A stretch of DNA of 41,144 nt from an uncultured virus (IMG/VR IMGVR_UViG_3300028586_000757) (IMGVR_UViG_3300028586_000757), one strand, 5' to 3'; numbered from the stretch's first letter, positions 557 through 39,416 are shown. Notes: generated by a model from the letters alone, not told the origin. A program made the numbers and translations.

Positions 557-685
557 GATGTCCTTTGAGGGCGCTGAAGTGAAATTGGGTCTATTGCTGT
601 CTAGCTATCAAGCTTAGTGACCCGGGCCTATGTCGGTTTGTAGGGTTCGCTACACGTAACAGGACAATTTCAAGGAAAATAAGAC

Positions 686-1300
686 ATGCAAACCACTGCT
701 ACCGGAAAACGCGTTTCCAAAGGCGCCCCAGTCGTCGTTGACGACACTGGCATGATGTACTACTTCGGTGGCGGCAGTAACGTCGACAAGAACGGGGAAT
801 ACCTGGACATTCCAGGGTTTCACCTGGGCCCGCGCACCAAGGAAAGCAATCCATACTCGTATGACCCGCTGCTGCAGTGGCGCAAATACGATAAGACGCC
901 AGCTACCGCGTCGGCGGTCTACTCAGACCGTATGGCCCAGTGGGACTACAGCAAGTACCGTTCGCTCATTGAAAAGCATTTCACGGGCATCGGCCACGAC
1001 CGAGGCGGCGACTACTTCCACAGCCGCAGCCCCAAGCGTATTGAAGCCTTCCTGCGCGACTACAACGACAACCAGGACCTGGAGCTCGTGCGCATCGAAG
1101 AGCACTGTAACTGGTCCAGCGGCTATCCGGTGTGGGCGTTCTTCTACGTCGACCCTAACTACGTGCCGCCAGCGCCACGTATGGAGCTGCCCAAAGCTCT
1201 GCCGCAGCTGGCTCGACTGGCCAAGGCTACTGGCGTGAACCGTCAGCGCGCGCAGTCCATGCGTGCGAAGGCACGAATGCGTAAGGCCATCCAGGCATAA
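686..1300 (+). CDS. Hypothetical protein (204 aa)
   Basis: AAGGA RBS, CTACAC at 650-655, terminator downstream. Confidence 0.8.
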   Translation: MQTTATGKRVSKGAPVVVDDTGMMYYFGGGSNVDKNGEYLDIPGFHLGPRTKESNPYSYDPLLQWRKYDKTPATASAVYSDRMAQWDYSKYRSLIEKHFTGIGHDRGGDYFHSRSPKRIEAFLRDYNDNQDLELVRIEEHCNWSSGYPVWAFFYVDPNYVPPAPRMELPKALPQLARLAKATGVNRQRAQSMRAKARMRKAIQA

Positions 1301-1317
1301 CTCTGCTGTCAATTCTG

Positions 1318-1348
1318 AACGGGCACCTTCTGGTGTCCGTTTCCTTTT
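1318..1348 (+). terminator. Intrinsic terminator
   Basis: AACGGGCACC-TTCT-GGTGTCCGTT then TCCTTTT. Confidence 0.7.
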
Positions 1349-1427
1349 AGTACTGAGTCAGTGACAGTCCTTTAAAAGAAAACAGCGCGAGCTCCTTGCG
1401 GGGCACGCGCTGCATGAATGATGGGTT

Positions 1428-2027
1428 TTACGCCTGGGCTTTAATCAGCCACAGCTGTTTGACGTCCTTGAGCTCGAGCACGTCGCGACCGGTAATGACC
1501 TCAAGACTATCATTTCGCACCCGTGCCAAGCAGGGAACGATGTTCAGACCTTGCCGGACCAAGTACTGCGGACGGTCCTCGTTTGCAGCTTGGGCGCGGC
1601 TATCTTCATCTTGAACAAAGCCGACGATGTGCGTCTTGGGGACTTCGACCACGACCAAGCGAGTGCCTAGCCATTTGGCACGGCAGTAGCTGTAAATGTC
1701 TTCAGCGTCCTGGTCGGAGATGCGTTCATCACGTAGGATGGCCAACGCTTGGCGCTTCTCCGCTGCCAGGATGTGCTGGAAGAGGGCGCCGGCAGCAATG
1801 CTACTCATGCCGTCTTGAAGGTCCTGCAACAGTTCTTCACCGCGCTCCACGGACACGGACGACTTGCTCGAGGGCTTGCGGCCAACAGATGCCTTGGCGT
1901 GTGCTGCGAGCGCAGCACGATACTGCCCCTCAAAGTCTTCGCCGTCTTTCTCGGCTGCTTTCGCCGCCGCTTCCATCTCTTGCGTTAGTTCGCGCGGAAC
2001 GATTTGCCAAATGGACTCGTGATTCAT
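1428..2027 (-). CDS. Hypothetical protein; C-terminal ~120 aa domain paralogous to 2045-3016
   Basis: ATG at 2027 (MNHESIW) after AAAGGA; shares ERGE..L.DL..G / AED.Y.YCR.KWLG.RL..VEVP / YLVRQG / QLW with its neighbour. Confidence 0.8.
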   Translation of the reverse strand: MNHESIWQIVPRELTQEMEAAAKAAEKDGEDFEGQYRAALAAHAKASVGRKPSSKSSVSVERGEELLQDLQDGMSSIAAGALFQHILAAEKRQALAILRDERISDQDAEDIYSYCRAKWLGTRLVVVEVPKTHIVGFVQDEDSRAQAANEDRPQYLVRQGLNIVPCLARVRNDSLEVITGRDVLELKDVKQLWLIKAQA

Positions 2028-2044
2028 AGGTTCCTTTTTTGTAC

Positions 2045-3016
2045 TTACTGCGGTACTTCGACGACCATCCACAGCTGCGGAACCGTCGACAGTTCAACAC
2101 GGTCTTTGCGCAGGTCCAGCCACAGCCTGCCTACGCGTTCTTCGGCATAGCCGCTTTCGACAGATTTTCCTTGGCGGACCAGGTATTTGGGGCCGTAGCC
2201 ATTGAATACCTCGGTGGAGGGCAGGTTCTTGCGAACTACTTCTTCCATCTGGTGTCGCGGCACTTCGACAAGCATCAGACGTTTGCCCAGCCACTTTTGT
2301 CGACAATACGCGTAGAGGTCTTCCGCGTTTTGGCCCGTCATGCGTTCTTCAGCGAGAACTTCGAGAGCTCTCACTTTGTCGCCTGCCAGGATGCGCAAAC
2401 GCAAATCTTCAGCGACCGGGCTGGCAATGCCTTCTTCCAGGTCAGCCATGAGCTGTTCTCCGCGCTCTTCCGATACGGCAGAACCTGTCTCAGCTACCGC
2501 AGGTGCGGCTAATGCGGCGGTCCCACGTTGGAATGCGTCCAGAACTCGTTTGTCAGTAAACCCGTGGCGGGACGCAAGACTCAGTAACAGGTAAGCGTTA
2601 TGGGCGCCGTCGCAGACAGCTTGCGCTTCCAAATCGTGCCCGATTGGCCTAAGGGAGTCGAAAGTGCGTTGTGCGGCCTCGAAGGCATGTTCAAACCGTC
2701 GGCGGCCGGCAGCTATGTCTGCACGAATCGCGTCCAGGATGGCGAGATTCCCTTTCTGAAACGCAGGGATGAAGCTGGGGTAGTTCCAGTAGGTTCCGCT
2801 CTCGTTTGCGTTACCCGCGACCATAGCGAGAGCATCGTGGGCTGTGAGGCCTGCGGCGCTTTCGAGCGCCAGTCCGCTGGTACGTACTTCTTCGGTGATT
2901 TGCAGCACCCGTGCAGCGATTTGCCCGTAGTTTTCTGGCAAAATGACGCCTTCTTGCAGCAGCGCCTGCGTAATCTTATGCGCCAGGTTGTCGTTCAATA
3001 GTGATGGGTTTGCCAT
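2045..3016 (-). CDS. Hypothetical protein (323 aa), paralogue of 1428-2027
   Basis: CAGGAG RBS; CTACAC on the minus strand at 3069-3074; shared C-terminal domain. Confidence 0.8.
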   Translation of the reverse strand: MANPSLLNDNLAHKITQALLQEGVILPENYGQIAARVLQITEEVRTSGLALESAAGLTAHDALAMVAGNANESGTYWNYPSFIPAFQKGNLAILDAIRADIAAGRRRFEHAFEAAQRTFDSLRPIGHDLEAQAVCDGAHNAYLLLSLASRHGFTDKRVLDAFQRGTAALAAPAVAETGSAVSEERGEQLMADLEEGIASPVAEDLRLRILAGDKVRALEVLAEERMTGQNAEDLYAYCRQKWLGKRLMLVEVPRHQMEEVVRKNLPSTEVFNGYGPKYLVRQGKSVESGYAEERVGRLWLDLRKDRVELSTVPQLWMVVEVPQ

Positions 3017-3100
3017 GTATTCTCCTGGGTTGACTGGAATGATGCCAGTTAAAAATGTGTCCTTTAGCGTGTAGCCATGCGCCGCGCTCCCCGCGCACCA

Positions 3101-3283: not shown

Positions 3284-3347
3284 GAATCGACTCCTTCATG
3301 ATAGTTGGCTATACCGAATAGGTACACATTTTTAGAAAAGGCACCAA

Positions 3348-4055: not shown

Positions 4056-4214
4056 CACCCAAAGAAGAACCGCGCCACGAAGACACGGTGTTTTGAACAA
4101 TGCAAGTCAGCTGGCGAGTCGGCACTTTGAAACCAATCATGCTTCCTAGCTGTGTACCATCACAAGGCTCAGGTTTGGCTATACCTGAAGACACATCTTT
4201 TTGAGGACAACTAC

Positions 4215-4983: not shown

Positions 4984-5050
4984 ATGAGGAGAGGGCGGGC
5001 CTCCTTTCGCCATCCGTCCTATACGTAGCTTCTTAGTAACTGGAGCTATC

Positions 5051-5455: not shown

Positions 5456-5504
5456 CACAGATAGATTTAACGGCCTACACAAAGCTTTACCGGACCAAGC
5501 CATC

Positions 5505-6335: not shown

Positions 6336-6443
6336 ATCTACTCCTTTTCGGATGGCACTACCGGTGTATCGACTTCGTTTAGTGCATAAAATCTGGGCAG
6401 TTTGGTCGCTATACCGTGGATACCCACTTCTTAATTCGCGACC

Positions 6444-7096: not shown

Positions 7097-7148
7097 CCTG
7101 CCTCCCGAAGCTCTCTATTGAGGCGCGCCGTGGACTATCTTTCGGAGC

Positions 7149-7177
7149 TTGCCAATAATTCTGTAGTCAGCTACAAT
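7149..7177 (+). promoter_or_regulatory. Canonical sigma70 promoter with an overlapping palindrome; predicts a leaderless mRNA
   Basis: TTGCCA (7149-7154), 17 nt, TACAAT (7172-7177); ATG 6 nt later; TGTAG-TCAG-CTACA inverted repeat over the -10. Confidence 0.75.
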
Positions 7178-7183
7178 AATAGC

Positions 7184-8035
7184 ATGAATACATCTCGCCG
7201 TCCAGGTAGGCCCCGCACCAATGCCCCAGGCACCACTGCTAGTCAGCGAGTGCGCAAGTCTGTCAACCAGTTGAAAGCGGCAGGCGGAGACCGCAAAACG
7301 TTTCGCTTGCGTGCGCCTGCGCTCGAGGCGCTTACTGAACTTGTCGACAGTCGTCGATATCCTAACGAGACCGCGGCTGTCGAAGGCGCGCTCTTTCTTG
7401 CCCGGAGTTCTGCCATGACCATGCCCTCGCTCTACCCCGTTCACATCGACAATCCGGCCGTTCAGGCCGTGGTACAGACCGCAGTTAGTGCCGCGTGCGC
7501 CGAACTGGATAGTCTGTTCCCTGGCGCTAAACCAGAAGTAAATGGAGTCTCCTCCAATTTCGCAGGTCTGCTGGAAAACCACATCAAGGCGCTGCTCACA
7601 GGGAAGACAGGCTATACGCCGTCGCACCTGGTGGAGCTGCCGGTTCTGCTAGCCACCGACCACGTCTTTGGCAAGCCATTCAATCTGCCGGAGGAGCAGG
7701 GGGCCGGCTACATGGTGGTCGACGAAACCTCACGTAAAGTGCTGAGCGCGTACAGCGGCCGATTCAGCTTCGCCATGCAGGATGCGAGCCTCGCTTACAC
7801 CGAGGAATTCACGTTCACGCCGCCGGGCGCGCGAACGGATGGGCTTGCAGCGACGAAGCCGGGACAAGACGTCGACGTACTGTTTTCAACGCATGAGGTA
7901 GCGGTGAAAAAGACGTTGGCCGCGCTGGAAGAAGAGGGCGTCGCACTAAAGGACCGGAAGATTCGTATTGTGACCGGCCTCTGGGATGACGAGAAAGAGC
8001 AGTATGTTGAATACGCAGCGGGAGTGCCGGCCTAA
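7184..8035 (+). CDS. Hypothetical protein with an N-terminal putative DNA-binding region (GRPR plus RHH-like)
   Basis: MNTSRRPGRPR...RKTFRLRAPALEALTEL..; possible second in-frame start at 7415 with GGAG. Confidence 0.7.
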   Translation: MNTSRRPGRPRTNAPGTTASQRVRKSVNQLKAAGGDRKTFRLRAPALEALTELVDSRRYPNETAAVEGALFLARSSAMTMPSLYPVHIDNPAVQAVVQTAVSAACAELDSLFPGAKPEVNGVSSNFAGLLENHIKALLTGKTGYTPSHLVELPVLLATDHVFGKPFNLPEEQGAGYMVVDETSRKVLSAYSGRFSFAMQDASLAYTEEFTFTPPGARTDGLAATKPGQDVDVLFSTHEVAVKKTLAALEEEGVALKDRKIRIVTGLWDDEKEQYVEYAAGVPA

Positions 8036-8138
8036 ATGACCTAGCCGTGCGGGTTGTGACCTACGCTTGAGAGGGTCATTGAGACGTTGACCACAGGCGT
8101 TTTGCTACACGTATGACCTCTCTTACAAGGACATTCTC

Positions 8139-8438
8139 ATGACAACCCTGCCGAGCGCCGATACTGCTGGCGTGACAAAAGAAGCCATTGATGCCGACGT
8201 CAACCGTCTGGTGACAGACTGGGTATTTCCGAGTGGCATCTGCCATTCTCCGGACGCGTACACTATGGCCCAGTCAAGTGTTCTCGCGAGCATGCTACGG
8301 AACCGCATGACAGAGTTGGCCGCCGAGGGTATCAGTCCACTCGGCCAGTCATTCGCCCAACTGCTGCAGGGTGTCGTGCCTCACGAAATCCGGGTGTATT
8401 CGGACGACGAAGACGACGAGTTCGCCCAGAACCCCTAA
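8139..8438 (+). CDS. Hypothetical protein (99 aa)
   Basis: CTACAC at 8105, AAGGAC RBS, terminator at 8453-8481. Confidence 0.75.
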   Translation: MTTLPSADTAGVTKEAIDADVNRLVTDWVFPSGICHSPDAYTMAQSSVLASMLRNRMTELAAEGISPLGQSFAQLLQGVVPHEIRVYSDDEDDEFAQNP

Positions 8439-8613
8439 TCGACCTTCCTTCCAAAGCCCAACCGCTCGGTTGGGCTTTTTGTCTGACGATTGGGGTCGCA
8501 GCCTTCCGCGTCTCGGCCGTTTAAGCTGAAGCGCTATATGGCCCACTCCAACTATTTGCTTGCAATCGCCCAGGAACTGCCGTACCGGCCGCAGGCGGTG
8601 CAGAACCGAATCC

Positions 8614-9345
8614 ATGCTTCCTATCGTAATTTTCACTCTCGTCGGGCTGCTCCTTGGCGGCATCACGACAGGCCTCGTACAGCGTCTGGTGCACCAGATG
8701 ACGGAAGACGCCGACGAGTTCGCACGCGACCGTCTTGGTCAACCGAACGCGGTCAGCGCGGCCAAGAACGCCGCTTCACCCGCTACGGGCCCCGCCTGGC
8801 TTCGGCATGCGCCGCTGGTGATGGGCGGCGTCATCGGTGTGGCGTGCGCCATGTTCCCAGGCACGCTCTGGCAAGGGGTAGCGCTCTTTACTGCCGCCTT
8901 TGTTCTGCTCTGGCTGGTAGCTGTCGACTTCAAGACCATGTATCTCCCCGAGTCGCTCAACTACGCGCTTGCTGGCATCGGCGTCCTCGCCGGCGCATTA
9001 GGCTGGTTCGTGACGCCGGAAAACGCGTTGTGGGGCGTTCTGGCGGGCTATCTGTCGCTCTATGTACCCGCTGTCATCTTCCAAAAGGTGCGAGGAATTC
9101 AAGGCTTGGGTGAGGGCGACTGCCTGCTGCTTGCGGGCATGGGCGGCTATATCGGCCCCATGGCCATTGTGCCGCTGCTGCTCATCGCCAGCTTCGTCGC
9201 CATCATCGGGCACTTCGCCACGGGTAACAAACGAGAAAATCCGTTCCCGTTCGGCCCCGCCCTGGCCGTCGCCGGCGTGCTGACCTTCATCATCATTCGG
9301 GTTCCTGCCCTGCAGCCAGGCGTACTGCAAGCCTTCTTCCAGTAA
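8614..9345 (+). CDS. Prepilin peptidase, family A24 (lacks the Cys-rich N-terminal domain of PilD)
   Basis: Multi-pass membrane protein with catalytic VAVDFKTMYLP and GLGEGDCLLLA motifs and the PFPFGPALA motif. Confidence 0.9.
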   Translation: MLPIVIFTLVGLLLGGITTGLVQRLVHQMTEDADEFARDRLGQPNAVSAAKNAASPATGPAWLRHAPLVMGGVIGVACAMFPGTLWQGVALFTAAFVLLWLVAVDFKTMYLPESLNYALAGIGVLAGALGWFVTPENALWGVLAGYLSLYVPAVIFQKVRGIQGLGEGDCLLLAGMGGYIGPMAIVPLLLIASFVAIIGHFATGNKRENPFPFGPALAVAGVLTFIIIRVPALQPGVLQAFFQ

Positions 9346-9424
9346 TACCTGCAGTACCTGAGAGCGCGGCCGGGCGGCTGCGCTCGTGCCTATAAGGGTT
9401 AGACCCATTTTAATAGGACACGAC

Positions 9425-9739
9425 ATGCTCTCTGCTGAACAAATTCTCGACCTCGCTGAAGAAAACGGCTTTCGCGCCACCTCCTACTGGGAGGGCTCCT
9501 CGGAAGGACACCGTCTTCCCAAGCGTAAGGAGATTTCCCTGTGGCTCCGCGACATCCGTCCGGAAGCCTGGGAAACCTTGATGAGTAACCTCACCGAAGT
9601 ACCCGTCAGCCTGATGGGCACTCGCATCGTATCGGGCAGTGGCGCCCTCGACGGACGCCTGTTCCCCGAGTACCGCGCGCTGCTTAATGGCGTCAACGAA
9701 AAGCGCGCCGCCATCGGGCTGCCGCCGGTGCTCGACTAA
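9425..9739 (+). CDS. Hypothetical protein (104 aa), tandem paralogue 1
   Basis: TAGGAC RBS; ML.AE.I.DLAE.N...YWE.SS.GHRLPKR shared with 9855-10169. Confidence 0.8.
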   Translation: MLSAEQILDLAEENGFRATSYWEGSSEGHRLPKRKEISLWLRDIRPEAWETLMSNLTEVPVSLMGTRIVSGSGALDGRLFPEYRALLNGVNEKRAAIGLPPVLD

Positions 9740-9854
9740 GCATCAAATTCCAACTACGCCGGCCTCTTTCCTAGAGCGCCGGCGTGTTTGTTCTCGGGCG
9801 CCGTGAGCCGTGATTCCTATACCAAAAAGACATTCTTTGATAGGACACCATGAC

Positions 9855-10169
9855 ATGCTGACTGCAGAAAAAATCATCGACCTGGCCGAAGCCAACAATA
9901 TCGACGCCTCCTGCTACTGGGAAGATTCGTCGAAAGGACATCGTCTGCCCAAGCGAACTCACATCAACCTGTCGTTCAAGAGCGTATGCCCTGACGTCTG
10001 GTTTGCACTGATGACCAACAACACGGAAGTGCCTGTCCGCTGCTTCGGCACCAGGCCGGCGACTGACAATCCGTCCACGGACGGTCGGCTCCATGCAGAC
10101 TACGCGGCTATGCTGCCAGCCGTGAACGCACGTCGTGCGGAACTCGAGCTGGCGCCGATTCGCGGTTAA
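9855..10169 (+). CDS. Hypothetical protein (104 aa), tandem paralogue 2
   Basis: Colinear with 9425-9739; own CTATAC (9817) and TAGGAC. Confidence 0.8.
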   Translation: MLTAEKIIDLAEANNIDASCYWEDSSKGHRLPKRTHINLSFKSVCPDVWFALMTNNTEVPVRCFGTRPATDNPSTDGRLHADYAAMLPAVNARRAELELAPIRG

Positions 10170-10285
10170 CGCTTCACATTATTTACGCTGGTGCCTTTGC
10201 AGGTGCCAGCGTTCTTCTTTTAGAGCAGAGACTTCCACGTGCGACTCGCTATAGATGAGAGGACAATTTTCAACCAGAGAACACC

Positions 10286-10933
10286 ATGAACCATTCCGAC
10301 AGCAAGCAGTACTACCTGCAAGACAGCCGAGGCAATGTGGGAGATAACATCATGTTCTGGGCCCCGGCAGGCGCCGGCTACACCTCGAACATTGACAAGG
10401 CTGCGCTCTTCACGGAAGAAGCAGCGTTTTCCCAGCACCAGTCGCGCCACGAAGACATCCCTTGGCCGGCTGAGTATGTGCGTGCACGGGTTCGTCCCGT
10501 GGTGGACATGCAATACGTCATGCATGCCGAAGCTTTGGCAATGCATCCAGATGCTACCGAGTTTCACCTGCAGCGTCCCGGCACATGGGACGGCAACGAC
10601 CTCATCTTCGTGCCCCGTACAGGCGTACGCGGCACCTCCGATTTGCGTAAAGCCCGTGTGGTCACGCGCCAGGAGTTGGAAAACGACGAGGCCCTGCGTG
10701 CACAAGGCGTTGCCTGGCCACGGGACTACCTTGAAACCAAGACTCGTCTGGCCGCGCCGGCATCGAACTGCAACATCGCCGATGCCCTTGCGCAGACCAG
10801 CAAGACGCTTATCCCCGTGCGAAAGCCGAAACCTGAGCGATACCGCTGCCATGGATGCGGCGTGTTCCTGTCCATCGGCAACTACTACAGCTGTTCTGGC
10901 TGTCCGCGCTGCGGCGCGGATAATCGCCCGTAA
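10286..10933 (+). CDS. Hypothetical protein with an internal domain duplication and a C-terminal zinc ribbon
   Basis: YYLQDSRGNVGDNIMFW..GYTSNIDKA..IPWP vs FHLQRPGTWDGNDLIFV..GTSDLRKA..VAWP; CHGC...CPRC. Confidence 0.8.
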   Translation: MNHSDSKQYYLQDSRGNVGDNIMFWAPAGAGYTSNIDKAALFTEEAAFSQHQSRHEDIPWPAEYVRARVRPVVDMQYVMHAEALAMHPDATEFHLQRPGTWDGNDLIFVPRTGVRGTSDLRKARVVTRQELENDEALRAQGVAWPRDYLETKTRLAAPASNCNIADALAQTSKTLIPVRKPKPERYRCHGCGVFLSIGNYYSCSGCPRCGADNRP

Positions 10934-10959
10934 CGGCAACCTTCATTTAGGAGAACATC

Positions 10960-11505
10960 ATGAAAAAGCTAACCCCGGACGAACGCGCCGCGCGGGATGC
11001 CGTGCGCGAAGACGCCAAGAAGGCATCCAATCGTGCCCGATGGACGACCAAGATGGAGGAGGTGACGCCTTTGATGGCCGAAGCCGCTGCGAAAGTCAAA
11101 GCTGCTCTTGGCGACAAGGACCTGTCTTTGCGCGACCTCTGGCTTGTGCTGGGTGTATTCGAGACCGAAGAAAAGATTGCCCTGGCCGGCGGTCATGAGT
11201 CCTGCAAGACCAAGTGGTTCGACCGTATTGCGCCTCGTGCTAATCCGGACGTGTACCCCTACTATGGTGTGTCGAGCTATTCGGTCAAGACGGCCGCTAA
11301 AGCTTCTGCGTTCCTCAAGGGCTCCCGCAATGGCTACGTCTACCTGACGGACCTTGGCTATGCCGCTGCACGGTGGATGCGTGAAACGTTTTCGACGCTG
11401 AACCCCGCTTATGGCTCGCCGCCGCACAAAAAGCCCATGCCAATGGACACCCTCGGCGACATGCCATTCCCGCGTTGGCGAGAATGGAAGGACTGGGACG
11501 TTTAA
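10960..11505 (+). CDS. Hypothetical protein (possible winged-helix-like C-terminal part)
   Basis: AGGAG RBS; YVYLTDLGYAAA resembles a wHTH wing (weak). Confidence 0.75.
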   Translation: MKKLTPDERAARDAVREDAKKASNRARWTTKMEEVTPLMAEAAAKVKAALGDKDLSLRDLWLVLGVFETEEKIALAGGHESCKTKWFDRIAPRANPDVYPYYGVSSYSVKTAAKASAFLKGSRNGYVYLTDLGYAAARWMRETFSTLNPAYGSPPHKKPMPMDTLGDMPFPRWREWKDWDV

Positions 11506-11545
11506 GATACCTGCTTGGCACTGCCAGGCGTTGAAAGGAAAATAT

Positions 11546-11935
11546 ATGTTTGGATACTCTGAACCGGACTTCACGGTCGAGAAAACGTTCGAGATGACTG
11601 TCAACGGTGAACTGCAACGAATGCAAATTCGTGTCGAGGTGCCGGACCCCAAGGCTGATGCATTTCTGGCGTCGTTGCCGGAGTCGTTGCGTAAGAACAC
11701 GCGGCCGCGAGACCTGAACCGCTACATCGCCCTCGAAAGCTTTGATGCCAAGGGTGAGCTGGAGATGGACGTGCTCCTACTGTACGCGGCCGGCGACAAC
11801 GCCAAGCTCGAGGCCGACTGGGAGCGCCTGGTTACCGACCAGCATGTGAACATCAAGGACCTGACTGGCTGGAACCAGCGAGTGCATCACCACGCTACCG
11901 GGTACTACCGTGGCGGCGGTGTCGCCATGTATTGA
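11546..11935 (+). CDS. Hypothetical protein (129 aa)
   Basis: AAAGGA RBS before ATG at 11546; terminator follows. Confidence 0.75.
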   Translation: MFGYSEPDFTVEKTFEMTVNGELQRMQIRVEVPDPKADAFLASLPESLRKNTRPRDLNRYIALESFDAKGELEMDVLLLYAAGDNAKLEADWERLVTDQHVNIKDLTGWNQRVHHHATGYYRGGGVAMY

Positions 11936-11952
11936 CCAACACGCATTCAATC

Positions 11953-11979
11953 AGCGGGCTCTTCGGAGTCCGCTTTTTT
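11953..11979 (+). terminator. Intrinsic terminator with a cUUCGg loop (repeat partner of 12407-12431)
   Basis: AGCGGGCTC-TTCG-GAGTCCGCT then T-run. Confidence 0.85.
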
Positions 11980-12037
11980 GTGGCGCTACGATACTGCTTG
12001 CTACACGACACAGTTACTAATTTTCTCGTGAGGACAT

Positions 12038-12388
12038 ATGAACATCAAATCTGCTCCCCTGTATGCTGCTGTCGTAGGTGGTCTGGTCAAAGGCTTCCAT
12101 GTCGTGGCCATCGACGTCAAGTCGGAAATTGACCGCCTGTTCTACAAAAACGAAAGCCGGCGCGTGCACACCCAGTGCATCGAGCTGACCAAGCCGGAGG
12201 ACCGGATGGACGAGTTCCAGGAAGACCGCGGCGGCGACCATGTCGTGTTCGTTGGCGGCGTGAGCGGTGGCGAAATGTTCGGCCCATTTTCAAGCAGCTT
12301 GCGGGCCGCCGAGTTCGGTGCTCGGGTTTGCGATGCGATGGACGATGCACAAGTCCGGTCGACCGTATTAACGGTGGTCAAGGGCTAA
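12038..12388 (+). CDS. Hypothetical protein (116 aa)
   Basis: CTACAC at 12001, GAGGAC RBS. Confidence 0.75.
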   Translation: MNIKSAPLYAAVVGGLVKGFHVVAIDVKSEIDRLFYKNESRRVHTQCIELTKPEDRMDEFQEDRGGDHVVFVGGVSGGEMFGPFSSSLRAAEFGARVCDAMDDAQVRSTVLTVVKG

Positions 12389-12406
12389 GCCACACATGCT
12401 TTATTC

Positions 12407-12431
12407 AACGGACTCTTCGGAGTCCGTTTTT
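12407..12431 (+). terminator. Intrinsic terminator with a cUUCGg loop
   Basis: AACGGACTC-TTCG-GAGTCCGTT then TTT. Confidence 0.85.
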
Positions 12432-12454
12432 CATGCGCAAACGGTTCAGGATAC

Positions 12455-12645
12455 GACAAAGCCCCTGGCACTCGCGCACCAGGGGCACTCCGCAAGGGCT
12501 TCTCTTGGCTATTCCACTCCAGGTGGAACCACCTCGCGGTGGCGGCGCTCAGCGTCCTGCATTCCTTGCTAGCAGCTGAGCCTTTCCGGTGGCGCCGGGT
12601 CTTCGCCAGCTTTCGGCCCTAGGCCTAAGCGAGCGGTAGACGGAA
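12455..12645 (-). ncRNA. Candidate ~190 nt structured non-coding RNA
   Basis: At least 5 hairpins on the minus strand with G-U pairs and GCGA tetraloops, ending in GCCCCUGGUGC-GCGA-GUGCCAGGGGC-UUUGU; -10-like CATACT at 12651-12656; no credible CDS. Confidence 0.55.
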
Positions 12646-12719
12646 TGTCTAGTATGCTCGTTTTATTGGCGCTTAAACGCCGGGCTCTACACGAAATTTA
12701 ACCATCAAAACCCTCGACT

Positions 12720-13250
12720 ATGGGCGTAATCCTTTTTCGTATCGTGGCCGTCCTCATGATTTACATCTTTGGGAGCATGGCATACACCGGCCTGCAGGAG
12801 TATCAGGCAGCTAGCGACCCGCTCCCTGCGCTTGCAAAGACTGAACCTTCCATGTGGAAACTTTTGGAAGAAAAACAAGGAACTGACTACAAGCACTACG
12901 CCCTCTACAACGGTAAGCAAACCTTCAAAATTTGCGAGGACACTAGAGGCTACATCGAATGCTCTCGATTCATGAGCAAGCGCGTTCAGGGCGTCTGTCC
13001 CGCATCGGCGAGAGGTGCTGCACGAGACACGGCCCCATGTCACCAGTTCCTCGGACGGCGGCTGGAAGCAGAGCCACTTGTCGTGGCCTACAACGACAAT
13101 GACCTAGTCGCCGTCAGCCGTCCCAATGGAGAACCGGTGCTCACCCCCGCGGAATGGACTGAAGCTCGCAGGGATTCCTTGGAGCGCATAGCACTGTGGA
13201 AAATGGGTATTGGGGTACTTTTCGCGTTGTTGGCGCTCTGCGCATTCTGA
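12720..13250 (+). CDS. Membrane protein with N- and C-terminal TM helices around a Cys-containing periplasmic domain
   Basis: Two hydrophobic segments; CTACAC at 12687. Confidence 0.75.
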   Translation: MGVILFRIVAVLMIYIFGSMAYTGLQEYQAASDPLPALAKTEPSMWKLLEEKQGTDYKHYALYNGKQTFKICEDTRGYIECSRFMSKRVQGVCPASARGAARDTAPCHQFLGRRLEAEPLVVAYNDNDLVAVSRPNGEPVLTPAEWTEARRDSLERIALWKMGIGVLFALLALCAF

Positions 13251-13287
13251 AATACTTGGAGGCGCCAAGCGCTGCACATGGTGAAAG

Positions 13288-13310
13288 AAAAACCCCGCCA
13301 GCGGCGGGGT
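13288..13310 (-). terminator. Intrinsic terminator (repeat partner of 14671-14696)
   Basis: ACCCCGCC-GCT-GGCGGGGT then T-run on the minus strand. Confidence 0.8.
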
Positions 13311-13315
13311 CGGAA

Positions 13316-14443
13316 TTATTGCGATTTGTCTTTCTGACGCTTGACGATGCGAGCCAGCGTATCCTCTCCTATGCGGAAGGGTTGTGAGAACGGCTGCGCG
13401 TCGACTTCGCGGTAGGCAAGCACGGTCGTGTCTGATTCTTTACGATACAGCGTGCAGCTGTGAACGTTTCGGAACCAGTCGCCGACGGAAAGCTCGCCGA
13501 ACGTCGTCATTCCAAGCATGGGCTCGTCGGGTGAGATGGACCCATTTGCCAGGCCGCGGGCATGCAGCTCGTACCCCAAAACTTCCAGACTTCGCTCTAC
13601 AGCACGAACAGCCGCGTTCGCGTACTCGGGTTCATCTTCAGTGCCTTCGGACGGGATGACCGAGCAATCCGAAAGGGCGTTGAGCACATCGCCGCGTTCG
13701 ATGAGGTATTCGCAGTGACGACCTCCTTCACGAGTAGCAGCCCAGTGCAGCTGTGCGTGTTCCCAGGCGGCTTGGCACACTTCCATCATCTTGAAAGTTT
13801 GTGCCGGCGTGTCCAGTTCAACGTCGTTCACGCCGTCGATGGCGGGCGCCGCCACTGCTGTACTTGGCTGAACGATAGCCAGCAGTTCTTCGCCATAGTC
13901 CTGCGTCTTCAACCAATTCAGAAGGTCTGTCTGGTCGACGAAGCAGTACAGGTCGCCGTAGTCATGGCCCAGCTGGTCTTTTGCACCGACGTGGTTAAAG
14001 ACCGTCGTCAGCACTGCTGTATCGAACGGGCCGAACTCCTGGCCAGAACAGTACAGGGCGATTCCTTGCGCAAGCTCGTTTTTGCCACCGTAGACGGTAG
14101 AAAAGCCTTCTACGGGATTGCGTTTTTCCTGCCGAAGCAGACGGGCAATGCGGTCTTTACCCGCCCACTGCAACCAGGGCATTGCATCGAACTCGGCCGC
14201 GGCCTTGTCGTCGCCTGTAGTCAGGATTGCGCGGACCACAAGAGGACCAGGTGCGACCAGCCGACCGGGTACCTTTTCAGGTTTAGCTGCTGCCAGGCGT
14301 GCCGATAGCACATTCCATGTGGTTCCTTCGCTTGCCGCGAGAGCCTCGTAAGCTTGGGCGAGAGTCACTTCACGCTCGAAAACGTGAGAGAGGTGCGCAC
14401 GCAGGAGACGGCCTTTTTGCTTGAAAGTTTGCAGTTGGTTCAT
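13316..14443 (-). CDS. Protein with an N-terminal 'glyoxalase superfamily' (Glyoxalase_8-type) helical domain
   Basis: FKQKGRLLRAHL...VTLAQAYEALAASEGTTWNVLSA fits the K..A+.LR..L....AxE.+A...G...WN.L.A pattern; AAGGAC RBS before ATG at 14443. Confidence 0.75.
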   Translation of the reverse strand: MNQLQTFKQKGRLLRAHLSHVFEREVTLAQAYEALAASEGTTWNVLSARLAAAKPEKVPGRLVAPGPLVVRAILTTGDDKAAAEFDAMPWLQWAGKDRIARLLRQEKRNPVEGFSTVYGGKNELAQGIALYCSGQEFGPFDTAVLTTVFNHVGAKDQLGHDYGDLYCFVDQTDLLNWLKTQDYGEELLAIVQPSTAVAAPAIDGVNDVELDTPAQTFKMMEVCQAAWEHAQLHWAATREGGRHCEYLIERGDVLNALSDCSVIPSEGTEDEPEYANAAVRAVERSLEVLGYELHARGLANGSISPDEPMLGMTTFGELSVGDWFRNVHSCTLYRKESDTTVLAYREVDAQPFSQPFRIGEDTLARIVKRQKDKSQ

Positions 14444-14625
14444 GTTGATTGTCCTTGTATTGTCGGGCCTCGATAGAGACAAACTTGATTCTTGTCCGGA
14501 GGTTCTCCCATTCCCCACAATCGAGACCCGTAAGGGCACTCGAACATGGTTGTCATTTTTACTACGCAGAGGTTCACCATTTCGCTTTGCGAGCGACGGG
14601 AGACGGCAGGCGCCTGCAACGCCTA
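14440..14625 (-). promoter_or_regulatory. Structured 5' leader with a 46-codon uORF (14580-14440) whose TGA overlaps the downstream ATG
   Basis: Hand translation MVNLCVVKMTTMFECPYGSRLWGMGEPPDKNQVCLYRGPTIQGQST*; hairpins AGGCG/CGCCU and CCGU..UCGC-AAA-GCGA..AUGG enclosing the uORF AUG. Confidence 0.5.
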
Positions 14626-14670
14626 TGTGAAATGTAGCAAATGACGAACTCGCGGTGGTGTTGGCACAAT

Positions 14671-14696
14671 AAAAAACCCCGCCGGTGGCGGGGTTT
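14671..14696 (-). terminator. Intrinsic terminator
   Basis: AAACCCCGCC-ACC-GGCGGGGTTT then TTT on the minus strand. Confidence 0.8.
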
Positions 14697-14723
14697 CGCT
14701 TTAAGCGCAGTTAAAGCGAGGAA

Positions 14724-15038
14724 TCAGCAGTCTTCGTTGTCGCCACGTGTCCACAGGTGCTGGTACTGGGTGACGTACTCGAGACGTTGCGCTTCATTCA
14801 TCTGCCCGTAGAAGCGGATGATGCCGTTGATGCCCTCGGTGTTGTACGCTGACGGAGTGTGCAGTGCGTAGAAGTCCACGGCATGCTCATCGTCCAGGCC
14901 CAGAGTACACCTGGCGCCACGGCACGCGTCACGAACCTCCTGCGTAGCCTGACTCCAGCAGGTGGCGTCAACAGGATAGAGTTCCTCGAGCTGTTCACGC
15001 AGTGAAGCAGGGGAAGGTAGAGCTTGGGATAAAGTCAT
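14724..15038 (-). CDS. Hypothetical protein (104 aa)
   Basis: AAGGA RBS before ATG at 15038; downstream of the Nudix fusion gene. Confidence 0.7.
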   Translation of the reverse strand: MTLSQALPSPASLREQLEELYPVDATCWSQATQEVRDACRGARCTLGLDDEHAVDFYALHTPSAYNTEGINGIIRFYGQMNEAQRLEYVTQYQHLWTRGDNEDC

Positions 15039-15103
15039 CTGGATTTCCTTGGAAAGCCGCACCTGAGTTGAATCAGGTGCGGCGAATGCAGTTTCTGATG
15101 TGC

Positions 15104-16309: not shown

Positions 16310-16431
16310 GATACTTCTCCTGTGTTGTGAAAATTGACCTATTCCACCTATAGCCATCGCGGACCGCTTAAATCCCTGACAAGACGCGTTCTCTACACAG
16401 GGCTGGACAACTACTCAACACAGAGGGCACC

Positions 16432-17106: not shown

Positions 17107-17224
17107 ACCCGGTCGTTGACGCCTGCTTTGTGCCCCGGATTCTTCCCGGGGCATTTTCTTACGTATGGCGCAGGGCATCTCCTATACAAGGCAGCAAGGA
17201 ACCAATTCGTTGAAAGGACATTGA

Positions 17225-18576: not shown

Positions 18577-18796
18577 GTGTTCTCCAGTGACAGTGCTAGT
18601 TAAAGCGTGCTACGGGTGAGCATGTCAGTCTTTTAAAGACCGACAGGCACGCTCCCGCCAGGCTAAATACCTGCACTATCCTGTGAACATAATTTATTGA
18701 TTTGATATGCCCTTTAGACATTGTCGAGGAGTACCAAGTCAAGGTTGAGTACCACGAAGCTGAAGATTCGGATAAGTGGAATTCAATCGTTGTTTA

Positions 18797-18895: not shown

Positions 18896-18946
18896 GCAAT
18901 GGTGCCCCGGTGTCGGGACCTTGCATTCTTCTACCCGGAGATACAA

Positions 18947-20395: not shown

Positions 20396-20570
20396 AGGGT
20401 AACGAGTCAGTATTTAAGCCAAGTTGTCTATACCTCGAGTGATTGCTTTACTTGCTAAATGTACTAATACGAACAATGTCCCATCCGGACGCAGCTGCTG
20501 CCGCGGCAAAAGGTGTCAAAAGCACACTACCCCGACGCTGCAGCTGGCAAAGTTACTGAACTGTGAGCCA

Positions 20571-25556: not shown

Positions 25557-25788
25557 TCACGGCCGGCTAGTGCCCGAGTGCCCCCGCTTGCGGGGGCTTT
25601 TTCTTTATAGGGTCACGATTTAGGTGGTTTAAGACAAGTTTCCTATAAATATTCTATAGGCGTTTTACTTGCTAAACGCACTAATACAAACAATGTCCCA
25701 TCCGGACCCGGGTGCCGCCGCGGAAAATGATGTCAAAAGCATACATTCTCCAACGCTATTGCTGGCAAAGTTACTGAACTGTGAACCA

Positions 25789-30829: not shown

Positions 30830-30906
30830 GCCAGGCACAGGCAGAGAGCATTGGACCCAAAGCGCAAAGTCTATACGTGATAGGTTAACTAAAATTAGGA
30901 CACATC

Positions 30907-31941: not shown

Positions 31942-32212
31942 ACACAGCGTTGTATCATTCAGCAGCCCACCTTCGTGTGGGCTGTTTTATTTCGTCTGCT
32001 ATGCATAATCAAGCGCACTGGGCTGCTTTATTGCATTTGATGTTCCTAATAAGCACCAGTACGTGATAAATATTGCGACCTATACATTTTAAACATTTGC
32101 CCCTACCACTCTAGCTGACTTTATAGCTTCGAGTAAATACATTCAGTCCTGCTCGTGCCACCTCGCTCGCCGACGCTACTTGGGGCTTGAAAACTACGGA
32201 TAGTGCAACTCA

Positions 32213-37195: not shown

Positions 37196-37211
37196 CGTAA
37201 GGTCATTCGGG

Positions 37212-37237
37212 AGCCCGGTTTCGCACCGGGCTTTTTT
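37212..37237 (+). terminator. Intrinsic terminator
   Basis: AGCCCGGT-TTCGC-ACCGGGCT then T-run. Confidence 0.8.
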
Positions 37238-37300
37238 AACAAATACGGGGTGGTGTTTGTTCGCTATAGTTGGAGCAGACACTCACAAAAAGGACAATAT

Positions 37301-38338
37301 ATGGCCAAATCATCGGCACCCGCGGCGCAACCCGCACGTCAAGGCTTTTACCGTGTCACTCTGGAAGACGACTCGGAACTCATCGCAGAATGGCGTGAAA
37401 TTGTGAAGGCCGAAGGCAAGCGCTGGTGGCAATACGTCAGCGACAGCCCGACGGCAGCGAAGGTACCGGTTCCGCTCGAGGGCGTCGTCGACTTCGCTCC
37501 TGCAGACAAGAAAGCAGTTGAAAAGCTGCTCAAGCGCGAGCTGTCGGAAGAAGAAAAGCTCGAAGCGGCATACACGTCGTTCATGTCCACCGAATGCCTG
37601 AACCATCGCAACCACTGTCCAGTTCCGCCAGGCCGGCAAGTACAGGTCGGTGACGAGTTGGAAGTGGGCCTGCTACGCGACGTCAAGGCAGTCGAACTGC
37701 GTGACGAAGGGCAAGTTATCATCTACTCGTTCCGGGACGTGAATCACAACTACGGCAACCCTCAGGACCTGGGCATCAAATATCGCGCGGCGCACTGGAC
37801 TGAAGTTCTCATCCGGAAGCACATCCGTGACGACACGCTCACGCTGAACTCGCGCATGTTTAATGCTTACCGCAGTTCGACGCTGGACTCGGTTATCAAC
37901 CGCATGCTGCGCGGCGTGGACGACGCTCCCGACTATCAGCGCGGCTATGCGTGGTCCGCTAAGGACAAGGAGCTGTACCTGGACTCGGTTTTCGCCGGCC
38001 GGGAGCTGGGTCGGTTCATCTTTATCCGCCGCGGCTATCCGCACCGAGACCAAATTCTGGATGGCAAACAGCGCCTGACCTGCCTGTACGAGTTTGTAAC
38101 CAGCCAGCTGGCCTACAACGGTGTCTACTGGCATGAGTTGAGCCCACGTGACCGGGACCGCATCGAAAACCGAAGCATCCAGTTCGCAGAGCTGCATCAG
38201 GACGAATTCACCCGCGCGGACCTCCTCCAGATTTTCCTCGAGGTCAATGCCGCTGGCGTGCCACAGACCGAAGAGCATCTGGCACGCGTGCGTGCAATGC
38301 TTGAAGAAGAGCGTACCAAAAACGCGGCTTCAGCGTAA
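37301..38338 (+). CDS. DUF262 domain protein, paralogue 2
   Basis: ATG at 37301 after AAGGAC; PDYQRGYAW, LDGKQR; colinear with 17225-18283 over the full length. Confidence 0.85.
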   Translation: MAKSSAPAAQPARQGFYRVTLEDDSELIAEWREIVKAEGKRWWQYVSDSPTAAKVPVPLEGVVDFAPADKKAVEKLLKRELSEEEKLEAAYTSFMSTECLNHRNHCPVPPGRQVQVGDELEVGLLRDVKAVELRDEGQVIIYSFRDVNHNYGNPQDLGIKYRAAHWTEVLIRKHIRDDTLTLNSRMFNAYRSSTLDSVINRMLRGVDDAPDYQRGYAWSAKDKELYLDSVFAGRELGRFIFIRRGYPHRDQILDGKQRLTCLYEFVTSQLAYNGVYWHELSPRDRDRIENRSIQFAELHQDEFTRADLLQIFLEVNAAGVPQTEEHLARVRAMLEEERTKNAASA

Positions 38339-38487
38339 CGTCCTCGACGTAGCATATTCTCGCCCCCGACTCGTTCGGGGGCTTTTTTTTTGCGAAGACA
38401 TCTAAAAAGTAAGGGCGCATTACAGATTTTTTAATGCGTAGTAGCTATTCAGATGAGGAACCATTTTCTCAACCCTGAAAGGACTGT

Positions 38488-39264
38488 ATGGAATTTCTGC
38501 TGGACCCTAGCCTGTGGATGGCGTTCGCCATGCTGACTGCACTGGAAATCGTGCTCGGCGTCGACAACATCATCTTCCTGACCATTCTGGTCAACCGCCT
38601 GCCGGCCGAACGACGCGACCAAGGACGCAAGTTCGGTCTCGGCTTCGCCTTGGGCTCGCGCCTGGCGCTGCTGTGCTCGCTATCGTGGGTCATGGGTCTG
38701 ACGGCACCGCTGGTCACTCTGTTCGGCCACGGCATCAGTGGGCGCGACCTCATCCTTATCGGCGGGGGTCTGTTCCTGCTGTACAAGGCATCTCACGAGA
38801 TTTTCATTGAAGTCGAAGCACGCGAACAAGACGGTGTGGAAGGCATGGAAGCTAAAAATCCAGCCGCGGCTGGTGCCAAGCTGTTCTGGGGCACCGTCGT
38901 CCAGATTGGTATCATCGACATCGTCTTCTCGCTGGACTCGGTCATTACTGCCGTTGGCATGGTGAACAAGCTGCCGGTGATGGTTGCTGCAGTGGTGGCT
39001 TCGTGTGCCATCATGATGAAGGCGGCTAAGCCAATTGGTGAATTCGTCGAACGTCACCCTTCGGTGAAAGTCCTGGCACTGTCGTTCCTGACCATGGTCG
39101 GTATGGCTTTGATTGCCGAAGGCTTCCATGTCGAAGTACCGAAAGGCTACATCTACGCCTCGATGGTCTTCTCGCTGCTGGTGGAATTCTTGAACATCCG
39201 TGGCCGTGCCAAGCGCCTGGCGGCTAACGCTGTTAAGAACACCCAAGCCGACGCGACGGTGTAA
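38488..39264 (+). CDS. terC: TerC-family integral membrane protein
   Basis: LTALEIVLGVDNIIF, GRDLILIGGGLFLLYKA, DIVFSLDSVITAVG, PKGYIY signatures; no CBS domains. Confidence 0.92.
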   Translation: MEFLLDPSLWMAFAMLTALEIVLGVDNIIFLTILVNRLPAERRDQGRKFGLGFALGSRLALLCSLSWVMGLTAPLVTLFGHGISGRDLILIGGGLFLLYKASHEIFIEVEAREQDGVEGMEAKNPAAAGAKLFWGTVVQIGIIDIVFSLDSVITAVGMVNKLPVMVAAVVASCAIMMKAAKPIGEFVERHPSVKVLALSFLTMVGMALIAEGFHVEVPKGYIYASMVFSLLVEFLNIRGRAKRLAANAVKNTQADATV

Positions 39265-39416
39265 CAACAGGCACGAGCATCACATGATTTGCTAAACGGC
39301 TGCCTTCTGGCGGCCGTTTCTTTTTCGTGCCATACCAGCATGTGCGTATTTATAGTCCGGGTCTCTATACGGAACAACTATTATCAAGTCCGCATGATTC
39401 ACTTAACCGTCCCATA

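Follow-up and report, generated by a model that had tools for sequence, protein, structure and literature searches.

A giant plasmid that enters a new host brings unknown genes by the hundred, and the expression of these genes and their cost to the host pose an open problem. In a 41-kb window (the whole stretch of DNA analysed, 41,144 nucleotides) of a giant plasmid-like element, about half of the genes carry the same short promoter-like word upstream, which raises the question of what the word is and what reads it. The sequence-only reading of this window had proposed dedicated transcription machinery, an element-encoded sigma factor or RNA polymerase of the kind found in phiKZ-like jumbo phages. 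Literature searches found no published description of the word; "promoter" and "sigma" have no occurrences in the text of one paper on related megaplasmids (PMC7313664), and a second megaplasmid paper, whose text was searched for the same two terms, holds no description of it.

Of 30 gene starts in the window, 13 have the hexamer CTAYAC beginning 30–44 nt upstream; this set omits three adhesin genes, whose ORF starts are uncertain. In 5,000 shuffles of the upstream 120 nt the count averaged 0.24 with a maximum of 4, none reaching 13. The looser CTAYAV occupies the same interval at 17 of 30 starts (5,000 shuffles, mean 0.67, maximum 5, none reaching 17), so that the positional enrichment over shuffled controls, the check set by the sequence-only reading, is present, and any other 15-nt distance window holds CTAYAC in 0–1 genes of the set. 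CTAYAC occurs 29 times on the plus strand and twice on the minus strand, and 15 of these 31 sites are intergenic in our own gene model, in which intergenic DNA makes up 10.6% of the window. A profile of the word scores at least 8 bits before 15 of 31 window genes; genes without the word have negative best scores, and the operon-internal genes at 2027, 10960, 11546 and 15038 lack it, as had been stated. All 17 starts for which CTAYA(C/G/A) had been named 30–44 nt upstream do have the hexamer, 16 on the plus strand and one (16309) on the minus strand, served by a palindromic CTATAG at 16348–16353.

Individually, and on the plus strand unless stated, CTACAC sites lie at 650–669 (with a GGACAATTT box, 36 nt before ATG 686), 5475–5494 (30 nt before ATG 5505), 8105–8124 (with a GACC box, 34 nt before ATG 8139), 12001–12020 (37 nt before ATG 12038), 12687–12706 (33 nt before ATG 12720) and 16393–16412 (with a GGACAAC box, 39 nt before ATG 16432), and on the minus strand at 3055–3074 (with a GGACACATTTTT box, 58 nt before the ORF start of gene 2045–3016, profile score 19.5). 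CTATAC sites lie at 3309–3328 (39 nt before ATG 3348), 4179–4198 (with a GACACATC box, 36 nt before ATG 4215), 5019–5038 (32 nt before GTG 5051 of a DUF3761 gene), 6409–6428 (35 nt before ATG 6444), 9817–9836 (with a GACATTCTTT box, 38 nt before ATG 9855), 17182–17201 (43 nt before ATG 17225 of a DUF262 gene) and 30871–30890 (36 nt before ATG 30907). Variants are CTATAA at 9390–9409 (with a GACCCATTTT box, 35 nt before ATG 9425), CTATAG at 10249–10268 (with a GGACAATTTT box, 37 nt before ATG 10286) and at 37264–37283 (with a GACACTC box, 37 nt before ATG 37301 of a second DUF262 gene), the minus-strand palindrome, whose site spans 16334–16353 (44 nt before ATG 16309, weak profile score of 4.8), and CTATTC with GAGGAAC at 38445–38464, 43 nt before ATG 38488 of a TerC gene, which the profile alone detected (12.5 bits).

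The adhesin genes follow a different spacing. Signal-peptide-like N-termini place their likely real starts at 20571, 25789, 32213 and 39417, and the word precedes these by 143 nt (CTATAC, 20428–20447, giant adhesin 1), by 146 and 135 nt (CTATAA at 25643 and CTATAG at 25654, within 25643–25673, giant adhesin 2), by 133 nt (CTATAC, 32080–32099, ATG 32213, giant adhesin 3) and by 52 nt (CTATAC, 39365–39384, a fourth adhesin gene); the distance of 133–146 nt claimed for three giant adhesins is right with these starts. The word is also usable to correct gene starts, as was done for the adhesin genes.

The element to which the window belongs may be at least 623 kb long, as a contig of 623,534 bases encodes a protein identical to one of the window. 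The window sequence is present in three DNA sequencing runs, the best of them labelled leaf litter metagenome, with no RNA run among those listed. No close DNA relatives of the window were found among plasmids and phages, and among genome, viral and metagenome contigs with relatives of the DUF262 protein a single one (L153) is a true relative locus; at 65–74% DNA identity, i.e. ~30% diverged, it keeps the word at four of four orthologous sites (12001, 12687, 16393 and 17182). The closest complete relative is the 801-kb, tRNA-carrying plasmid 2 of Variovorax sp. SRS16, and the sections of PMC7313664 consulted describe such tRNA-carrying megaplasmids (pWDL1-1, pSRS16-1 and relatives) in linuron-degrading Variovorax. 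These megaplasmids have no DNA-level likeness to the window and a G+C content of 62.5% against 57%, yet they share with it the DUF262, 10286 and 10960 protein families (36–44% identity), giant choice-of-anchor-D/Ig adhesins, an A24 peptidase and the promoter word. Upstream of the Variovorax orthologue of gene 10286 (44% protein identity) stands the same actcgCTATAG-N6-GGA. The annotation table of the complete relative lists F-type transfer genes, ParAB and RepB, and the element is therefore a plasmid. The word is known from two deep lineages only: it is not present in low-G+C loci and a 455-kb viral contig (L016, L020, L134), pQBR103 shares a protein family with the window but not the word, and ParA loci of Azohydromonas (L064–L068) are too short for a comparison of the word.

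In its full form the word reads T-n-S-CTAnAC-V, followed by 4–5 free bases and AGGAC. The second box of the sequence-only reading holds up, since GAC(A/C) begins 4–13 nt past the hexamer at 10 of 18 window sites (shuffle mean 1.62, maximum 7, 0 of 5,000 reaching 10), six of which 18 have GACM followed by TTT (shuffle mean 0.19), as do its two absences: the 17 aligned window sites are without any conserved upstream column that could be a −35, and T follows the hexamer at one of 18 sites. A profile from 75 Variovorax sites has T(−3), S(−1), non-T(+6) and A(+11)GG as in the window, and information content stays at or below 0.17 bits in every column from −45 to −4. With TAYACn taken as the −10 hexamer, T stands at −7 in one of 75 Variovorax sites and one of 18 window sites, G being preferred in the former (49 of 75), and in the 30–39 nt bin CTAYRCT occurs once against 49 times for CTAYAC(A/C/G). 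C stands before TAnAC in all aligned sites, CTA being invariant by construction; CTAnA is retained in 107 of 112 profile hits of at least 8 bits, and 19 of the 112 are CTAGAC, with G as the fourth base. The Variovorax hexamers lie mostly 32–38 nt from the start codon, a plateau 7 nt wide. A ribosome-site-like AGGA stands ahead of the start codons.

Within the Variovorax host the word appears private to the plasmid, in a comparison with the host chromosome of the kind proposed by the sequence-only reading. The profile reaches 8 bits before 112 of 557 genes (~20%) of the SRS16 plasmid and before one of 390 sampled chromosomal genes, and CTAYAC lies 30–39 nt upstream of two of these 390 (571 kb of ~7.3 Mb, with gene calls from a crude home-made caller, as for all Variovorax genes); perfect sigma-S boxes are infrequent on chromosomes in general, so that their absence from 390 chromosomal genes is weak evidence. 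Those gene calls superseded a lenient test (an ORF of at least 60 aa downstream), which was dropped because of its 45% background. Word matches on the 801-kb plasmid number 48 against 7 control matches. Across 401 Burkholderiales genomes the Variovorax host was the sole outlier, with 48 matches against 16 in the next highest, and four contigs that bear the plasmid's own matched words account for 36 of its 48 matches, an attribution made by the identical words and not by alignment.

The search for a dedicated polymerase or sigma factor, also suggested for this element, covered the complete 801-kb Variovorax relative, 41 kb being visible of the window's own element, and recognised none. Sigma70_r2 (PF04542) gave no candidates, with TIGR02937 the highest score was 13.9 bits, below the cut-off of 42.9, and Sigma70_r4 and r4_2 raised only helix-turn-helices of transposase, XRE-regulator and homing-endonuclease-like proteins above cut-off. 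The RNA polymerase beta domain (PF00562) had no match on the relative, with positive controls in 14 of 14 genomes; the DFDGD (D-x-DGD) catalytic motif is in none of its long frames, and no product in its whole annotation table is called sigma or RNA polymerase. A search for T7-type polymerase (PF00940) had no match on the relative, and its control search was silent everywhere too. The 13 Sigma70_r2 genes of the host genome all lie on contigs other than the plasmid's. Among 22 window proteins, PHROGs and NCBIfam scans found no transcription factor; the predicted fold of the 10960 protein has no Foldseek match at E ≤ 0.001, and VIA-align matches it to winged-helix domains with Z of 5.3–7.4, middling by the tool's own grading.

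Judged from sequence patterns, CTAnAC is probably a promoter core, confined to a family of giant plasmids and read by the host core RNA polymerase; this judgement covers these three points jointly, and the identity of the specificity factor lies outside it. CTAnAC would serve as −10-like core in a class of promoters restricted to giant, tRNA-carrying, conjugative plasmid-like elements, ordered as T-n-(G/C)-CTAnAC-(not T), 4–5 free bases and a purine start box (A)GGAC(A/C), without a −35. Transcription would most likely start at the A or G of AGG, 6–8 nt past the hexamer, and the conserved A-G-G at +11 to +13 of the 75-site profile is the expected start position. A leader of ~20–25 nt, A/C-rich and G-poor, would then end at the ribosome-binding site, the adhesin genes having the same word with leaders of 130–146 nt, and each promoter, placed right after the terminator of the preceding gene, would drive a single gene or a short operon. 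We infer the host core polymerase as the enzyme because the complete relative encodes no polymerase. The hexamer follows a sigma-S-type extended −10 from −14 to −8 and avoids T at −7, a base required by sigma-70 and sigma-S; since the word also appears unused on the host chromosome, an element-borne factor seems likelier than a host sigma factor, and we tentatively suggest an unrecognised element-borne protein as the specificity factor. It is conceivable, if somewhat doubtful, that a family of giant conjugative plasmids (600 kb to >1 Mb, equipped with tRNAs and tRNA ligases of their own) carries a factor of no known family that redirects the host core polymerase to CTAnAC-N5-AGGAC.

The alternative that survives best, and that we regard as rather unlikely, is that a host holoenzyme reads the word as a sigma-S-type (or weak sigma-70-type) −10-only promoter; promoters of this kind would perhaps be weak or tied to stationary phase, which would limit the cost of the giant plasmid. 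Its specificity factor, a host sigma factor, has a similarly low chance. As far as the consulted parts of PMC5650638 and PMC9793710 go, the sigma-S extended −10 is KCTAYRCTTAA in E. coli and CTATACT in Pseudomonas aeruginosa, and (G/C)CTAYAC fits KCTAYRC over seven consecutive positions, including C at −13 with a G/T-like base before it, Y at −10 (the same T/C freedom in the TAYAC core) and C at −8, sigma-S promoters likewise having no conserved −35. The Caulobacter sigma-73 box GCtANAWC, in the portions of PMC13004042 and PMC8144410 used here, has the same G-C-T-A-N-A order and shows that CTAnA-type −10 elements without the final T exist, although its promoters have a strong TTGaCg −35 where the window sites have none, and its last two positions are W-C against C-G. 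The presence of 13 Sigma70_r2 genes in the host genome, none on plasmid contigs, and the lack of a recognisable sigma gene in the complete relative also suit a host factor. Set against it are the near exclusion of T at −7, the single chromosomal gene in 390 that reaches the profile threshold, and housekeeping promoters in Burkholderiales that, in the part of PMC9045368 available, are TTGACA/TATAAT-like. Compared with the sigma-S box as those sources give it, the window word also has no TAA after the hexamer and an extra conserved AGGAC start box, and its fourth base may be G. We know of no sigma-S or sigma-70 consensus with such an AGGAC box, and count this against a host sigma factor.

It is quite unlikely that the word is not a promoter and acts instead as a message leader element (in translation, in processing or as the target of an RNA-binding protein) or as the operator of a plasmid-wide repressor overlapping other promoters. 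The tight start-codon distance in most genes and the resemblance of AGGAC(A) to the ribosome-site-like AGGACA near start codons would suit a leader element, as would the word's absence before the tRNA arrays and the tmRNA gene of the Variovorax plasmid (bar one CTATAG before tRNA-Thr), which leaves room for a role linked to protein-coding messages, and the plasmid family's own winged-helix-like protein would suit an operator. However, strong terminator stems end 27–37 nt ahead of the hexamers at 10249, 12001 and 17182 (stem ends at 10212, 11974 and 17154), leaving no space for another promoter, and the start-codon distance shifts to 133–146 nt at the adhesin genes. The word is also neither a palindrome nor a repeat, unlike most operators, and is the sole A/T-bearing conserved block in the G+C-rich Variovorax upstream regions. 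Consensus sigma-70 promoters are not enriched in the window (11 against 7.0 ± 2.5 expected).

Least probable, and in our view very unlikely, is that an element-encoded sigma-70-family factor or RNA polymerase reads the word in the manner of phiKZ: the privacy of the word to the element family and the 41 kb visible of an element of possibly at least 623 kb speak for it, but the 801-kb relative uses the same word without Sigma70_r2, beta domain, DFDGD in a long frame or any such named product. Of the proposal of dedicated machinery, the promoter-like and element-private nature of the word (112/557 versus 1/390) is supported, and no sigma or polymerase gene was recognised in the relative. Two further readings were rejected: CTAYAC as the −35 of leaderless messages (no −10-like block lies downstream of the Variovorax sites, the spacing plateau is 7 nt wide and AGGA stands before the start codons), and CsrA-type paired GGA sites, because the first box is frequently GAC lacking GGA.

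Under the preferred reading of a plasmid-private promoter core, a word common to elements ~40% alike in protein and missing from the host chromosome would mean that their expression is wired apart from that of the host. Either the specificity factor would be of a new kind, or promoters that break the −7 T rule would be recognised by host sigma factors. If a plasmid-borne factor does redirect the host polymerase, this would be the plasmid counterpart of phage late transcription, in which ordinary host holoenzymes would leave cargo genes in their hundreds untranscribed and the plasmid itself would control when they are turned on. The word is a marker with which to find and delimit such elements in metagenomes, and it is open to direct experiment in harmless, cultured Variovorax strains (WDL1 or SRS16).

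Two phage systems also bear comparison. In phiKZ-like jumbo phages short promoter words are read by phage-encoded multisubunit polymerases, and the likeness to the window would be a short private word that precedes many genes in a very large mobile genome with numerous genes of unknown function; in the complete Variovorax relative the comparison breaks down at the very feature that defines it, as no polymerase subunit was found there. T4-type late promoters (TATAAATA) are read by the minimal sigma factor gp55 with the host core polymerase. Their sequence differs from the window word, and the window element, unlike T4, is a conjugative plasmid; by analogy, however, both would have short −10-only promoters with no −35, shortly before many genes of a mobile genome, and both would pair the host core polymerase with a factor that escapes ordinary sigma profiles.

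The hexamer CTAYAC that recurs upstream of gene starts in the window is best read as part of a predicted promoter. All 17 sites listed by the sequence-only reading are present at the distances it claimed, 16 on the + strand, and the − strand start at 16309 is served by the palindrome CTATAG at 16348–16353. Of the 31 CTAYAC sites, 29 are on the + strand and two on the − strand; 15 are intergenic, in a window that is 10.6% intergenic by the gene calls made here, and a further two, at 20428 and 39365, lie inside over-long ORF calls, yet upstream of real starts. With three adhesin genes set aside (their ORF starts are uncertain), CTAYAC begins 30–44 nt upstream of 13 of 30 genes and CTAYAV of 17 of 30, a positional enrichment far beyond that in shuffled upstream regions (5000 shuffles, means 0.24 and 0.67, maxima 4 and 5), and each other 15-nt distance window holds CTAYAC for 0–1 genes. 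CTAYAV was counted 84 times in the whole window, against 60.4 ± 7.5 expected. The second box is also real: in 10 of 18 sites GAC(A/C) starts 4–13 nt past the hexamer (1.62 on average in shuffles, with none of 5000 reaching 10), and 6 of 18 have GACM followed by TTT (0.19 on average in shuffles). A T follows the hexamer in one of 18 window sites, and in the aligned window sites the upstream columns are unconserved save for T at −3 and G/C at −1, so the near absence of a terminal T and the lack of a conserved −35 were likewise borne out.

Signal-peptide-like N-termini suggest starts at 20571, 25789, 32213 and 39417 for the adhesin genes; the hexamer lies 143, 135 or 146, and 133 nt upstream of the first three, in keeping with the earlier description, and 52 nt upstream of the fourth. 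The leaders of the first two (20428–20570 and 25643–25788, + strand), ~140 nt each, are conserved paralogues over most of their length, and Rfam holds no family for either.

The window (41 kb, 57% G+C) encodes mostly genes without a known family; the exceptions are four giant Ig/laminin-G surface proteins, two DUF262/GmrSD_N proteins, an S8 protease, a 2OG oxygenase, an A24 prepilin peptidase and TerC. A c-di-GMP-I-GGC riboswitch aptamer (RF03167, 18797–18893, + strand, 64.5 bits against a gathering score of 59) lies near the 5′ end of, and within, the called ORF 18776–20329, ahead of the sequence for the S8 subtilase domain; the true start of the protease gene is probably downstream of 18776, and cyclic-dinucleotide control of the gene is probable. 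Searches of 72,556 plasmids and 50,697 phages found no close DNA relative of the window, and the public sequencing run best matching its DNA is labelled leaf litter metagenome. The window's element is probably very large, as a protein identical to the 10960–11505 product is encoded on a contig of 623,534 bases.

A metagenome relative, a 7.9-kb contig (L153), is syntenic with window positions 7967–17405 at 65–74% DNA identity. It keeps the hexamer at all four orthologous places, together with the terminators and ribosome sites, and the sequence between these elements has drifted. The complete relative is the 801-kb plasmid 2 of Variovorax sp. SRS16 (NZ_LR594667.1), which shares with the window, at 35–44% identity, the DUF262 protein, the 2OG oxygenase, a nucleoside-deoxyribosyltransferase-like domain and the products of 10286 and 10960, and at 29% the A24 peptidase. 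Its 10286 orthologue is preceded by actcgCTATAG-N6-GGAA, against actcgCTATAG-N6-GGAC in the window, and its DUF262 orthologue has CTATAG 37 nt upstream of the start. The plasmid encodes ParAB, RepB, RecA, F-type transfer functions and type IV pili, as well as giant ‘choice-of-anchor D’ proteins, tRNA ligases, a tmRNA and some 49 or 50 tRNAs, and the available text on this megaplasmid describes a possible new plasmid group (PMC7313664). The tRNA genes lie mostly in a single − strand array at 66–75 kb; the tmRNA (385090–385439, − strand, permuted according to ARAGORN, tag ANESNFRLAA) adjoins smpB (384533–385033), and no clear CTAnAC word was found upstream of the tRNA or tmRNA genes.

Across the Variovorax plasmid, CTAYAC-N5-8-GGAC gave 48 matches, 24 per strand, against 7 for the reversed control pattern, and none of the 48 falls within 295,205–350,060, the span with an IS-flanked catabolic insert. 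By the calls of a crude home-made gene caller, CTAYAC starts 30–39 nt upstream of 50 of 557 genes, with 2–13 in other 10-nt bins. Alignment of 75 sites gave T at −3 (44/75), G/C at −1 (69/75), CTAYAC, G at +6 (49/75) and A at +11 (53/75), then G, G and a G-poor, A/C-rich stretch; T stands at +6 in one of the 75, and all columns further upstream, from −45 to −4, hold ≤0.17 bits. The profile built from these sites matches 112 of the 557 genes at ≥8 bits, with cores CTACAC (41), CTATAC (36), CTAGAC (19), CTACAG (4), CTATAG (4), CTAAAC (3) and five single variants, which give the core as CTAnAC.

The word appears, by sequence comparison, to be private to the element. At the same threshold the profile matches 15 of 31 window genes, but in 571 kb of non-plasmid sequence from the host strain Variovorax sp. 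WDL1 it matches only 1 of 390. Across all 8.1 Mb of the WDL1 genome CTAYAC-N5-6-AGGAC has 48 matches against 3 for the control; 36 fall on four contigs (C13, C74, C151 and C296), which were assigned to the plasmid because the words matched there recur in its record, not by alignment, and 12 on the rest. Among 401 Burkholderiales genomes (four marked unpublished, which add only background counts on which no claim depends), WDL1 with its 48 is followed by a genome with 16, and most have 0–8, similar to their own controls. Burkholderiales housekeeping promoters are described, in passages of one paper, as TTGACA/TATAAT-like (PMC9045368).

The sequence-only reading had proposed an element-encoded sigma factor or RNA polymerase. 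We searched the Variovorax plasmid in six frames and found no Sigma70_r2 candidate (controls positive) and no RNA polymerase beta domain (controls positive in 14 of 14 genomes); Sigma70_r4, r4_2 and TIGR02937 gave only weak helix-turn-helix matches, namely IS21 transposases, an XRE-type regulator and a frame that by eye resembles a LAGLIDADG homing endonuclease. The T7-type polymerase family had no match, with its control equally silent, and no long open frame carries a D-x-DGD motif. The products in the PLSDB annotation of bases 1–801,406, a table of 817 features that omits pseudogenes and RNA genes, include none named as a sigma factor or RNA polymerase subunit; the annotated DNA-binding proteins are helix-turn-helix regulators, two WYL, two Crp/Fnr, RtcR, H-NS, HU and YbaB. 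In the Variovorax host genome, all 13 region-2 matches lie on other contigs. Given these results, the enzyme that reads the word would most likely be the host's.

Its specificity could come from an unrecognised element-borne factor, a reading we hold tentatively and at somewhat less than even confidence. That a host sigma factor reads the word is doubtful, though (G/C)CTAYAC coincides from −14 to −8 with the sigma-S consensus KCTAYRCTTAA. Both sigma-70 and sigma-S require the T at −7, which they bind in a pocket, and the word almost wholly avoids it: in the 30–39 nt bin of the Variovorax plasmid CTAYRCT occurs once against 49 times for CTAYAC followed by A, C or G. As six positions are strictly conserved and one base is avoided, this looks like direct read-out by something else, rather than a weakened host promoter.

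It is improbable that the word is not a promoter at all. Strong intrinsic terminators end 27–37 nt upstream of the hexamers at 10249, 12001 and 17182, and a gene behind a terminator needs its own promoter, for which there is no other room. The orientation of the word toward its gene is constant, and its distance from the start codon shifts to 133–146 nt at the adhesin genes, which makes a signal coupled to the ribosome site less likely. Genes that closely follow another gene lack the word. In the Variovorax plasmid sites, the conserved purines A-G-G at +11 to +13 from the hexamer's first base fall where a start 6–8 nt past a −10 element is expected, which favours the predicted promoter. The first 20 kb of the window show no enrichment of consensus sigma-70 promoters (11 against 7.0 ± 2.5 expected). 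The best of them (7149–7186, + strand, TTGCCA-17-TACAAT, 10/12) ends 6 nt upstream of an in-frame ATG at 7184, a gap that suggests a leaderless message; the 283-aa product, with an AT-hook-like RRPGRPRT close to its N-terminus, was matched by nothing in PHROGs, NCBIfam or Pfam (in the last case with the longer frame 7118–8035 as query). Very unlikely, finally, is a canonical sigma factor or polymerase encoded on the window's element outside these 41 kb.

For the element-borne factor, the 181-aa product of 10960–11505 (+ strand), putatively co-transcribed with 10286, is a lead only, tied to the word by co-occurrence in two lineages. It appears restricted to this element family: its PLSDB relatives are only the four Variovorax megaplasmids, and 3 of its 11 metagenomic relatives lie on contigs between 330 kb and 1.23 Mb long. 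A model from 12 sequences (pLDDT 85) predicts a long helix, then a domain whose best structural neighbours are winged-helix DNA-binding domains (Rio2 N-terminal domain, AF1382, and the HrcA, MarR and DtxR families) at Z 5.3–7.4, middling by the tool's own rating, and rmsd 2.5–4; Foldseek returned nothing at E ≤ 0.001.

The neighbouring 10286–10933 product (+ strand, 215 aa) ends in a zinc-ribbon-like CxxC...CxxC and belongs to phrog_2457 (E 1e-44), a family with members in phages of Pseudomonas, Burkholderia and Vibrio and in many Pseudomonas megaplasmids, and named ‘DNA binding protein’ in phage Dolphis. Another megaplasmid, pQBR103 (L169, NC_009444.1 329396–369965), carries the family at 36% identity and has no CTAYAC before its genes in this region; it does have an upstream repeat of its own, (G/C)TTCTG(G/C)CAC, which by a count by eye lies ~45–60 nt before ~17–20 of the 41 genes on the + strand and may be a second case of a promoter word private to a plasmid.

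Passages from the literature yielded no account of a word of this kind; ‘promoter’ and ‘sigma’ occur nowhere in the available text of the Variovorax megaplasmid paper (PMC7313664), and once each in that of the pMPPla107 paper, neither on the plasmid's promoters. The earlier comparison with phiKZ-like phages fails, at least for the complete Variovorax relative, where their defining polymerase gene was not found. In its predicted architecture the word would represent a class of −10-only promoters belonging to a mobile genome, and in function it would come closest to T4 late transcription; demonstrating a new family of element-borne factor would make the finding far more significant. In sequence the word is most like the sigma-S box, given in passages of two papers as KCTAYRCTTAA (PMC5650638) and, for P. 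aeruginosa, as CTATACT without a −35 (PMC9793710). The word differs from the sigma-70 and sigma-S families in lacking their defining −7 T, and resembles the Caulobacter element GCtANAWC as it appears in the available text.
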